Of a stretch of DNA of 54,163 nucleotides, positions 50,208 to 50,415 are shown piece after piece (position 1 is the stretch's first letter; each line of letters starts with the position of its first letter). The notes under the pieces were generated by a model, which worked only from the letters and a program-made list of their open reading frames with translations, made no database searches and had not been told where the DNA came from. The stretch covers positions 1-54,163 of IMG/VR virus record IMGVR_UViG_3300021962_000139, one strand, 5' to 3'. The stretch comes from a virus (taxonomy: Duplodnaviria; Caudoviricetes). Both the position numbers and the translations under genes were made by a program.

Positions 50208-50302
50208 ATGTATAACTCATGGTTTTCTTTATAGTTTTTCTTTTTAATACCAATACAATACACATATCAGCTTAGGCTGAAATCTAAATTAAGGAGACTA
50301 TT

Positions 50303-50374
50303 ATGTGGACAAAACCAGCTGCAACTGAAATGAGATTCGGTTTCGAAGTAACTATGTACGTATGCAACAAGTAA
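50303..50374 (+). CDS. pqqA: Pyrroloquinoline quinone precursor peptide PqqA (23 aa; not in the ORF track)
   Basis: [23 protein letters not shown] with the ExxxY core (EVTMY); RBS AAGGAG; own terminator. Confidence 0.93.
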   Translation: [23 protein letters not shown]

Positions 50375-50392
50375 TTTTAGAGTTTAGAAACT

Positions 50393-50415
50393 AGGGGCTT
50401 TTCAGCCCCTTTTTT
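50393..50415 (+). terminator. Rho-independent terminator after pqqA
   Basis: AGGGGCT-TTTC-AGCCCCT followed by a T run. Confidence 0.88.

Follow-up and report, generated by a model that had tools for sequence, protein, structure and literature searches.

A solitary pqqA gene of Methylophilaceae type in its own cassette behind the capsid gene of an IMG/VR phage record

The precursor peptide PqqA carries a conserved Glu and a conserved Tyr, which are cross-linked to form pyrroloquinoline quinone (PQQ) (Barr et al. 2016, as cited in PMC7678222). An earlier note, made from the sequence alone, had proposed that the virus record IMGVR_UViG_3300021962_000139 encodes such a peptide, in an expression cassette of its own after the capsid gene. 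We analysed this stretch of DNA, called the window here, which is the entire IMG/VR record (54,163 b, linear, 35.5% G+C, completeness estimate 86%).

Results

The pqqA locus

The plus strand of the window carries a structural block with a terminase, an 844-aa portal-sized protein, a capsid protein and an SU10-type adaptor. The minus strand carries a replication block with a family-A DNA polymerase, an SNF2 helicase and a DUF927 primase-like protein. Neither tRNA genes nor a tyrosine integrase were found in the record. The features around pqqA, all on the plus strand, are as follows.

49243 to 50157, plus: major capsid protein gene (Pfam Phage_capsid_4, E 1.4e-12; Mu-like gpT), directly upstream of the pqqA cassette
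50174 to 50205, plus: intrinsic terminator of the capsid gene (14-bp stem and T-run; -18.7 kcal/mol, z -4.06, 0 of 200 shuffles as good)
50254 to 50259, plus: TACAAT, candidate -10 box, 7 nt 5' of the stem-loop, proposed from comparative geometry
50267 to 50280, plus: 5' stem-loop TCAGC-TTAG-GCTGA, predicted 5' end of the pqqA mRNA (fold z -1.0)
50285 to 50302, plus: leader AATTAAGGAGACTATTATG with the Shine-Dalgarno (SD) sequence AGGAGA (50292-50297), identical in host locus L253
50303 to 50374, plus: pqqA, open reading frame (ORF) of 23 codons, with Glu15 and Tyr19 as the E-x3-Y pair; PF08042, TIGR02107
50393 to 50416, plus: intrinsic terminator of pqqA (7-bp GC stem and T-run, hairpin 50393-50410; fold -13 kcal/mol)
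50420 to 50425, plus: TATAAT, candidate promoter of the next gene, abutting the pqqA terminator
50534 to 50809, plus: next gene, 91 aa, begins MATTTF, taken from the ORF list, no Pfam family

The 23-aa peptide matched both curated hidden Markov models of PqqA above their cut-offs. The Pfam model PF08042 scored 42.4 bits (cut-off 21.1) with 19 of 19 model positions covered, and the NCBIfam equivalog TIGR02107 scored 45.1 bits (cut-off 20) with 21 of 21 positions covered. The E-x3-Y spacing is present as Glu15-Val-Thr-Met-Tyr19. The assignment of the ORF to PqqA in the earlier note, and the model search named there as its check, both held, and by its sequence the ORF is confirmed as a genuine pqqA. 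The same peptide, with no residue changed, was found at five IMG/VR loci and at one locus of a Methylotenera metagenome-assembled genome (MAG; L176). For the N-terminal leader residues the comparison is one of identity only: the whole peptide equals the L176 copy, and purifying selection acts on the codons of this part.

The capsid protein shares 70% identity with its counterparts in Synechococcus phage MinM2 and Planktothrix phage Pag-Yong1, and 65.6% with the one in Pelagibacter phage HTVC023P. In HTVC023P the gene 3' of the capsid gene begins MANTTF. This start resembles the MATTTF of the next gene in the window, so that pqqA sits between two genes which are adjacent in HTVC023P. The placement of the cassette between the capsid terminator (z -4.06) and the next structural gene was thus borne out, with phage genes on both sides.

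Anatomy of the cassette

TACAAT at 50254-50259, the hairpin at 50267-50280, the ribosome binding site and the ATG at 50303 are all read in the sequence as the earlier note had claimed, and the terminator after pqqA was recovered both by terminator scan and by folding (hairpin 50393-50410). Within the single sequence the two 5' elements were at chance level. The 5' hairpin had a z of -1.0, no better than chance, and the window held 17 promoter-like sites against 19.1 expected from shuffles, which is no excess.

To compare cassettes, viral pqqA loci were found in IMG/VR by a degenerate DNA pattern for the RFGFEVTMY core (at least 120 contigs), and host loci by a degenerate DNA pattern for a 12-residue core in one genome per prokaryote species (at least 120 loci). 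Counts over these sets refer to the matches listed. Nine core codons were fixed by the search pattern, so conservation of the core within the sets is circular. The strict test compared 118 viral cassettes with 118 host cassettes, with 1,976 positions drawn at random from these loci and with the starts of 839 other phage ORFs that have an SD. The criteria were a stem of at least 5 pairs ending at -40 to -14, and a -10-like hexamer 5-9 nt upstream of the stem. The counts were as follows.

Viral pqqA cassettes (listed loci): stem 68/118; stem with -10-like hexamer 39/118
Host pqqA cassettes (listed loci): stem 39/118; stem with -10-like hexamer 7/118
Random positions: stem 365/1976; stem with -10-like hexamer 45/1976
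Other phage ORF starts: stem 178/839; stem with -10-like hexamer 37/839
Capsid lineage of the window: stem 17/18; stem with -10-like hexamer 12/18

The comparison across cassettes therefore supports the candidate promoter and the 5' hairpin (39/118 versus 2-4% in the controls), which the single sequence does not. Under earlier, lax hairpin criteria the hairpin alone was not enriched (57/118 versus 429/988). The stem sequences differ between contigs, which indicates that conservation lies in where the stem sits and in its pairing, not in its sequence. An SD-like sequence stood 5' of all 121 viral copies among the matches listed. A terminator-like site was found 3' of 53 of 120 listed viral copies and 104 of 118 listed host copies, versus 10 of 605 and 23 of 630 random windows.

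Terminators were found on both sides of pqqA, and the candidate promoter, which the consensus scan missed, rests on conserved geometry. This comparison supports the pqqA region as a predicted autonomous, self-contained cassette. A 5'-terminal stem together with a 3' terminator is a known recipe for a stable small mRNA.

A terminator T-run followed by (T)GTATAA(T/C) was observed at 50200-50215 and 50409-50425 of the window, at about 3969-3987 of the HTVC023P locus (L251) and in several relatives. The arrangement of terminator and TATAAT lies 3' of pqqA in several relatives and 3' of the capsid terminator in HTVC023P. The late region appears to be punctuated by such pairs of terminator and promoter. 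Two candidate signals at the same place were rejected. The direct repeat 50200-50215/50409-50424 (14/16) around the 209-bp module was considered as an insertion trace; 7 of 100 shuffles reach it, and it did not recur in relatives. The sequence TCATGGTTTTC 3' of the capsid terminator, as a recurring signal of the window, gave 12 matches against 12.1 expected.

The leader of pqqA

The earlier note had also stated that the leader is common to the late genes at 52025 and 52511. The 14-nt leader AGGAGACTATTATG at 50292-50305 has three exact copies in the window, at 50292, 52014 and 52500, against a chance expectation of 0.47 at up to 2 mismatches. The identity therefore stood. The 19-nt leader AATTAAGGAGACTATTATG, however, occurs unchanged 5' of the host pqqA at L253. 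The leader therefore arrived with the cassette, and gives no evidence of tuning to the phage late programme.

Three tandem lysine-rich genes lie downstream on the plus strand (51593-52015, 52025-52501 and 52511-52921; 140, 158 and 136 aa), and the pqqA leader also precedes the second and the third of them. The three proteins share a C-terminal motif (…GCAVKGKTKGKLY, …GCAVRGKTKGKLY, …GVATKGKTKGRMV) and look like one family of paralogous basic virion proteins, which may be internal or bind DNA. The leader copies at 52014 and 52500 follow the near-identical C-termini of these paralogues, so they count as one duplication.

Host origin of the cassette

Among the 80 host rows listed for the 12-residue core (of at least 120), 69 were titled with the family Methylophilaceae or its genera, including Methylotenera, Methylophilus, Methylovorus, Methylobacillus and Ca. 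Methylopumilus; 10 had higher-rank names and 1 was an Acidovorax MAG. The 133-nt cassette DNA had a match in 193 of 201 sampled Methylophilaceae genomes, the best at 94% over 80 nt. Both results agree with the Methylophilaceae-type PqqA suggested in the earlier note.

The likeness extends over the cassette. In several Methylophilaceae genomes of 1.2-1.4 Mb the match spans leader to terminator at 78-82%. At L256, in a 1.3-Mb genome with a local G+C of 36%, the 5' stem reads CTGC-TTAG-GCAG, a compensatory change relative to CAGC/GCTG in the window. TAGAGT followed by 7 nt and the stem reproduces the -10-to-stem spacing of the window there, and the terminator aligns with that of the window. The Ca. 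Methylopumilus universalis copy consists of a ribosome binding site, 23 codons and a terminator, followed by an opposite-strand gene.

Methylophilaceae have been reported to carry 3-12 pqqA copies and a single pqqBCDEFG set (PMC4109929). In the five host genomes checked here we counted 3, 4, 5, 7 and 5 copies of pqqA and one each of pqqB and pqqE. One pqqA copy abuts pqqB in 4 of the 5 genomes, and in the 1.3-Mb Ca. Methylopumilus genome all 3 copies are orphans. Orphan genes made up 20 of the 24 copies in total. By this comparison, the cassette was captured whole from an orphan pqqA unit of a Methylophilaceae host, from the putative promoter region to the terminator, with the 5' stem-loop, the SD and the 23 codons between them. 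Tandem pqqA pairs about 200 nt apart were also observed in the host loci L142, L166, L171, L174, L194 and L258.

No partner genes in the window

Six-frame searches of the window for pqqB, pqqC, pqqD, pqqE and a PQQ-dependent dehydrogenase were empty, as the earlier note had said for pqqB-E; the pqqC search is weak, because the pqqC control matched in no control genome. Homologues of Ca. Methylopumilus PqqB, PqqC, PqqD and PqqE were found at 0 of 120 listed viral loci, in the flanks fetched. Co-location with pqqBCDE is hence absent here, a feature which is not universal in the PqqA family (20 of 24 host copies are orphans).

pqqA in other phages

A tblastn search (E up to 10) of 50,697 GenBank phage records matched 12 records. 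Nine were phages of Methylophilales or Methylophilaceae, namely Venkman, P19250A, MEP301, MEP401, MEP402 and four Melnitz records. The other three were one uncultured spring podovirus and two contigs filed as 'Acinetobacter phage'. The viral tBLASTn comparison suggested by the earlier note thus gave nine methylophage records and the spring podovirus as carriers. Statements on methylophages cover these nine records; MEP431-434, HIM624-A, phiMB624-A, Venkman EXVC038S, MG-MTP1 and RSA-MFP1 are named methylophages outside this set. No phage named for any other host carried pqqA among the 50,697 records, bar mislabelled bacterial contigs. CAKLQF020000010.1 (L260), filed as 'Acinetobacter phage MD-2021a', has ppk and a full pqqBCDE operon beside pqqA, which identifies it as bacterial chromosome rather than phage; CAKLQH020000055.1 gave an equal peptide match.

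Intact ORFs from Venkman, P19250A, MEP301, MEP401, the spring podovirus and Melnitz EXVC044M all passed TIGR02107 (6 of 6; 34-40.9 bits). Over a 3.6-kb stretch of MEP401, pqqA is the sole DNA common to other methylophages. At the methylophage matches the GenBank annotation shows either no feature or an opposite-strand coding sequence. In MZ577097.1 (76100-76195; L259 1961-2056) and MW202481.1 (2067-2195; L006), hypothetical coding sequences lie opposite an intact pqqA that passes TIGR02107, and these are probably mis-called genes. Term searches of the main texts on MEP301, MEP401, Melnitz and Venkman found no phage pqq gene, and their supplementary tables might list pqqA; the MG-MTP1/RSA-MFP1 paper does not mention pqq.

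In IMG/VR all 120 listed contigs held an intact ORF of 23-25 aa. The predominant N-terminal and core type accounted for 109 of the 120, and 105 of the 120 loci had less than 40% G+C. The 11 copies outside the main type (L025 among them) have, for example, D-L, D-I or D-V before the core and other C-termini, and may belong to phages of other PQQ-using bacteria. At the listed loci 58 upstream gene families flank the viral pqqA, which is often antiparallel to both neighbours. Single-linkage clustering by shared proteins joined 126 loci into one component and was uninformative.

Selection was estimated on the 13 codons free of the search pattern. Across 102 distinct viral sequences the ratio of non-synonymous to synonymous polymorphism (pN/pS) was 0.26, against 0.21 across 105 distinct host sequences, and synonymous change was near-saturated (pS about 0.5-0.67). 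By this measure viral pqqA is under purifying selection.

Distribution in the capsid lineage

A capsid like that of the window was present at 19 of the 120 listed loci, and pqqA lies just downstream on the same strand in 17 of the 19, with a capsid-pqqA gap of 130-185 nt in 12 of the 17. The chimeric assembly that the earlier note had named as a refuter was accordingly not borne out, as these are 17 independent IMG/VR contigs. HTVC023P and Pag-Yong1 lack pqqA and have the next structural gene immediately 3' of the capsid gene.

A quick capsid tree was built from 73 rows: the window, 65 of the best 80 (83-94% identity) among more than 600 IMG/VR capsid relatives, five added pqqA-positive loci, HTVC023P and Pag-Yong1. 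Fourteen loci with an unscorable slot and one identical sequence were left out. Ten of the 13 carriers, the window included, fell into one sub-clade of 11 (SH-aLRT, Shimodaira-Hasegawa-like approximate likelihood ratio test, 86). The carriage label changed 5 times on the tree versus 12.2 times when shuffled, with 0 of 500 shuffles as low, and the addition of known carriers biases this clustering count upward. Carriage may have a single origin on this tree. The pattern is that of a capsid sub-lineage which gained pqqA, and it is consistent with a move onto Methylophilaceae hosts.

Discussion

Proposed role of the phage pqqA

A host-derived gene lies here inside a viral genome with viral genes on both sides, as expected of an auxiliary metabolic gene. 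We think it likely that the phage supplies PqqA, as a consumable precursor, to the PQQ pathway of its host and so sustains methanol dehydrogenase. The cassette, captured from the host, now resembles a moron set between the terminator of the capsid gene and the structural gene after it. A short, hairpin-bracketed mRNA would be translated to PqqA during infection. The single PqqD/PqqE/PqqB/PqqC set of the host, with a peptidase, would convert PqqA to PQQ, one peptide per cofactor. The PQQ-dependent methanol dehydrogenase (XoxF/MxaF), the entry point of energy and carbon in the cell, would then not run short of PQQ during phage replication. The sequence comparisons show the identity of the gene, its host origin, the layout of the cassette, its solo status, its recurrence and purifying selection on it; use of the -10 box, translation, host processing of the peptide and any gain in PQQ, methanol oxidation or burst size are what we infer. 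Demand for the substrate is suggested by the several pqqA copies that hosts hold beside one pqqB and one pqqE. In a PQQ overproducer, two pqqA copies rise along with PQQ synthesis (PMC9851590), and the most abundant transcript of OM43 is xoxF (PMC5120137).

Several observations weigh against this proposal. TACAAT at 50254 was absent from the output of the consensus promoter scan. The record is about 86% complete, so pqqB-E may yet lie in the missing part of the phage genome. Among the best 80 capsid relatives, pqqA was found in 7; with the count limited to the 65 whose sequence runs on for 700 nt or more past the capsid gene, it was found in 6. Most close capsid relatives thus lack pqqA in the slot, which makes it dispensable for this virion type. 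PQQ must also be exported and loaded into new apo-enzyme within the latent period.

The RNA data count on both sides. As a mark of substrate demand, RNA contigs that cover only the pqqA ORF had depths of 430-1510 among the pieces listed, and up to about 4,570 when summed at single positions (three metatranscriptomes), and the capsid gene reached at most about 115 in the same metatranscriptomes. The phage-specific flanks 50152-50279 and 50408-50535 had no RNA cover in the three RNA-library runs. The contigs that cover the ORF diverge just outside it, which indicates other pqqA loci and makes them uninformative on the expression of this phage. Most likely they derive from host pqqA loci, and the flank of one of them resembles the leader of the host loci L174 and L258. 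Since hosts already express several pqqA copies very highly, the gain from a single phage copy may be small as long as host transcription does not collapse. The RNA contig of depth 1510 (run X16 record 14) holds two tandem pqqA copies, one of them identical to the window ORF over 78 nt, and is a possible pointer to the host of the phage.

PQQ may also be made for a benefit other than methanol oxidation, such as other quinoproteins, protection from redox or oxidative stress, or release to neighbours. PQQ has several enzyme clients, viral pqqA/D/E are listed under phosphate solubilisation in PMC13188868, and nothing in this analysis directly ties the phage gene to methanol dehydrogenase specifically. 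We nevertheless regard this as unlikely, given that carriage was limited to Methylophilaceae phages among the 50,697 records, with well-sampled phages of other PQQ-using genera not among the matches, and that xoxF is the top transcript of OM43 (PMC5120137).

A neutral passenger is decidedly unlikely. A small and highly transcribed host cassette could be picked up by illegitimate recombination and not yet be lost, without any benefit; it is tiny and self-contained, hosts hold many copies, and most capsid relatives are without it. The data on selection and recurrence make neutral carriage hard to sustain: pN/pS is 0.26 with near-saturated pS, 120 of 120 listed viral copies are intact, the slot is conserved in the capsid sub-clade, and the gene occurs in unrelated sipho-, podo- and myoviruses of one host family.

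The predicted short mRNA bracketed by stem-loops, and the conserved position of its 5' stem, could also suggest an RNA or decoy role, in which the transcript titrates a regulator or RNase of pqqA mRNA or the peptide loads host PqqD/E unproductively. Selection acts on the amino-acid sequence, however, SD-like sequences precede 121 of 121 listed viral copies, and the peptide is identical or near-identical to host copies. Identity to host copies together with selection fits a substrate and not an inhibitor, and we hold such a role to be very improbable.

We give hardly any weight to a homology patch for recombination or integration at the host pqqA locus, with an attP-like role. The longest exact run in common with a host copy is 27 nt, and one copy in an RNA library is identical over 78 nt. 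Against this, the record has no tyrosine integrase, the whole ORF is kept with SD and terminator, synonymous sites vary, and lytic isolates also carry pqqA. An assembly chimera or host contamination, conceivable as pqqA is abundant in the same samples, deserves next to no weight, given 17 independent contigs with capsid-pqqA, phage genes on both sides and a DNA run covering 30 of 30 junction bins. That run is possibly the source sample itself, and among the contig pieces listed none bridges the junctions.

Relation to known systems

The supply of a PQQ precursor by a phage has a precedent, as the earlier note had suspected. Coutinho et al. 2020 (Microbiome; PMC7678222) reported PqqA on a T4-like contig of the Lake Baikal population VP_266 with a predicted Methylophilaceae host, and proposed the same role. 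The likeness is in a PQQ precursor gene on a putative Methylophilaceae virus, put forward as an auxiliary metabolic gene for methanol oxidation. The Baikal virus differs in being T4-like, and the Baikal viral populations also have methanol dehydrogenase, radical S-adenosylmethionine (SAM) and SAM-cycle genes (PMC7678222). The window is in contrast an HTVC023P-like phage of about 54 kb in which pqqA stands without other pqq genes, as a cassette of its own within the late region. PMC7678222 describes neither the cassette nor the host-orphan origin nor that the gene recurs in cultured phages. In a 2026 paper viral pqqA is counted with the phosphorus genes (PMC13188868), and literature searches found no further reports of viral pqqA beyond these two.

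The closest counterparts of the cassette are host orphan pqqA genes, which share the peptide (L176), the monocistronic layout with SD and terminator, the leader (L253), and an aligned stem and terminator (L256). The window copy differs in lying in a virus, and the -10-plus-stem geometry is found in 39 of 118 listed viral cassettes versus 7 of 118 listed host cassettes. Venkman, P19250A, MEP301, MEP401/402 and Melnitz likewise carry a solo PqqA of 23-24 aa, 73-91% identical to the window peptide, with its own SD. They differ in virus type and position: the siphoviruses have it in recombination or early regions, MEP401 at the genome end and Melnitz between tRNA genes.

Cyanophage psbA is a case in which a phage resupplies a quickly used-up component of host energy metabolism, and the morons of lambdoid phages are extra genes with their own promoter and terminator between late genes. 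Compared with both, PqqA is a consumable substrate of 23 residues rather than an enzyme or a subunit, and its promoter here is a candidate.

Recurrence across unrelated cultured methylophages, the complete host orphan unit and the fixed post-capsid slot in a podovirus sub-lineage appear to be unreported in the texts searched. We lean slightly towards a wider proposal, that pqqA is a signature auxiliary gene of Methylophilaceae phages: a captured host orphan unit, maintained by selection in five or more unrelated types of virus (podoviruses of HTVC023P-like and Zobellviridae type, two types of siphovirus and T4-like myoviruses) and missed by gene callers in the published isolate genomes covered here. 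If so, pqqA would be among the smallest auxiliary metabolic genes and a one-gene host marker for uncultured methylophages, and PqqA supply would be the limiting step of PQQ-dependent methanol oxidation in infected cells. In coastal seas and lakes, the methylotrophs OM43 and LD28 connect methanol from phytoplankton with CO2. If the phage gene feeds the cofactor pathway, infected cells would continue methanol oxidation, and precursor supply, not enzymes, would control PQQ synthesis. In practice, a 69-nt gene overlooked by standard annotation flags likely methylophages in viromes, with at least 120 contigs in IMG/VR, and the annotation of several GenBank phage records can be corrected.

Other genes of the record

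Three further observations concern other parts of the window. The ORF at 8756-16396 (plus strand; 2546 aa) has as its sole Pfam match LPD38 (large polyvalent protein associated domain 38), near the C-terminus, and the G+C content dips locally to 29-31% at this ORF. In the replication block, at 33388-34560 and 34594-35655 (minus strand), a DUF2201 metallopeptidase/VWA-like protein adjoins a P-loop NTPase. The 345-aa protein at 40424-41461 (minus strand) has a C-terminal match to a carbamoyltransferase or Kae1-like domain (Carbam_trans_N, HypF_C_2), and a function in nucleotide or tRNA modification is possible.

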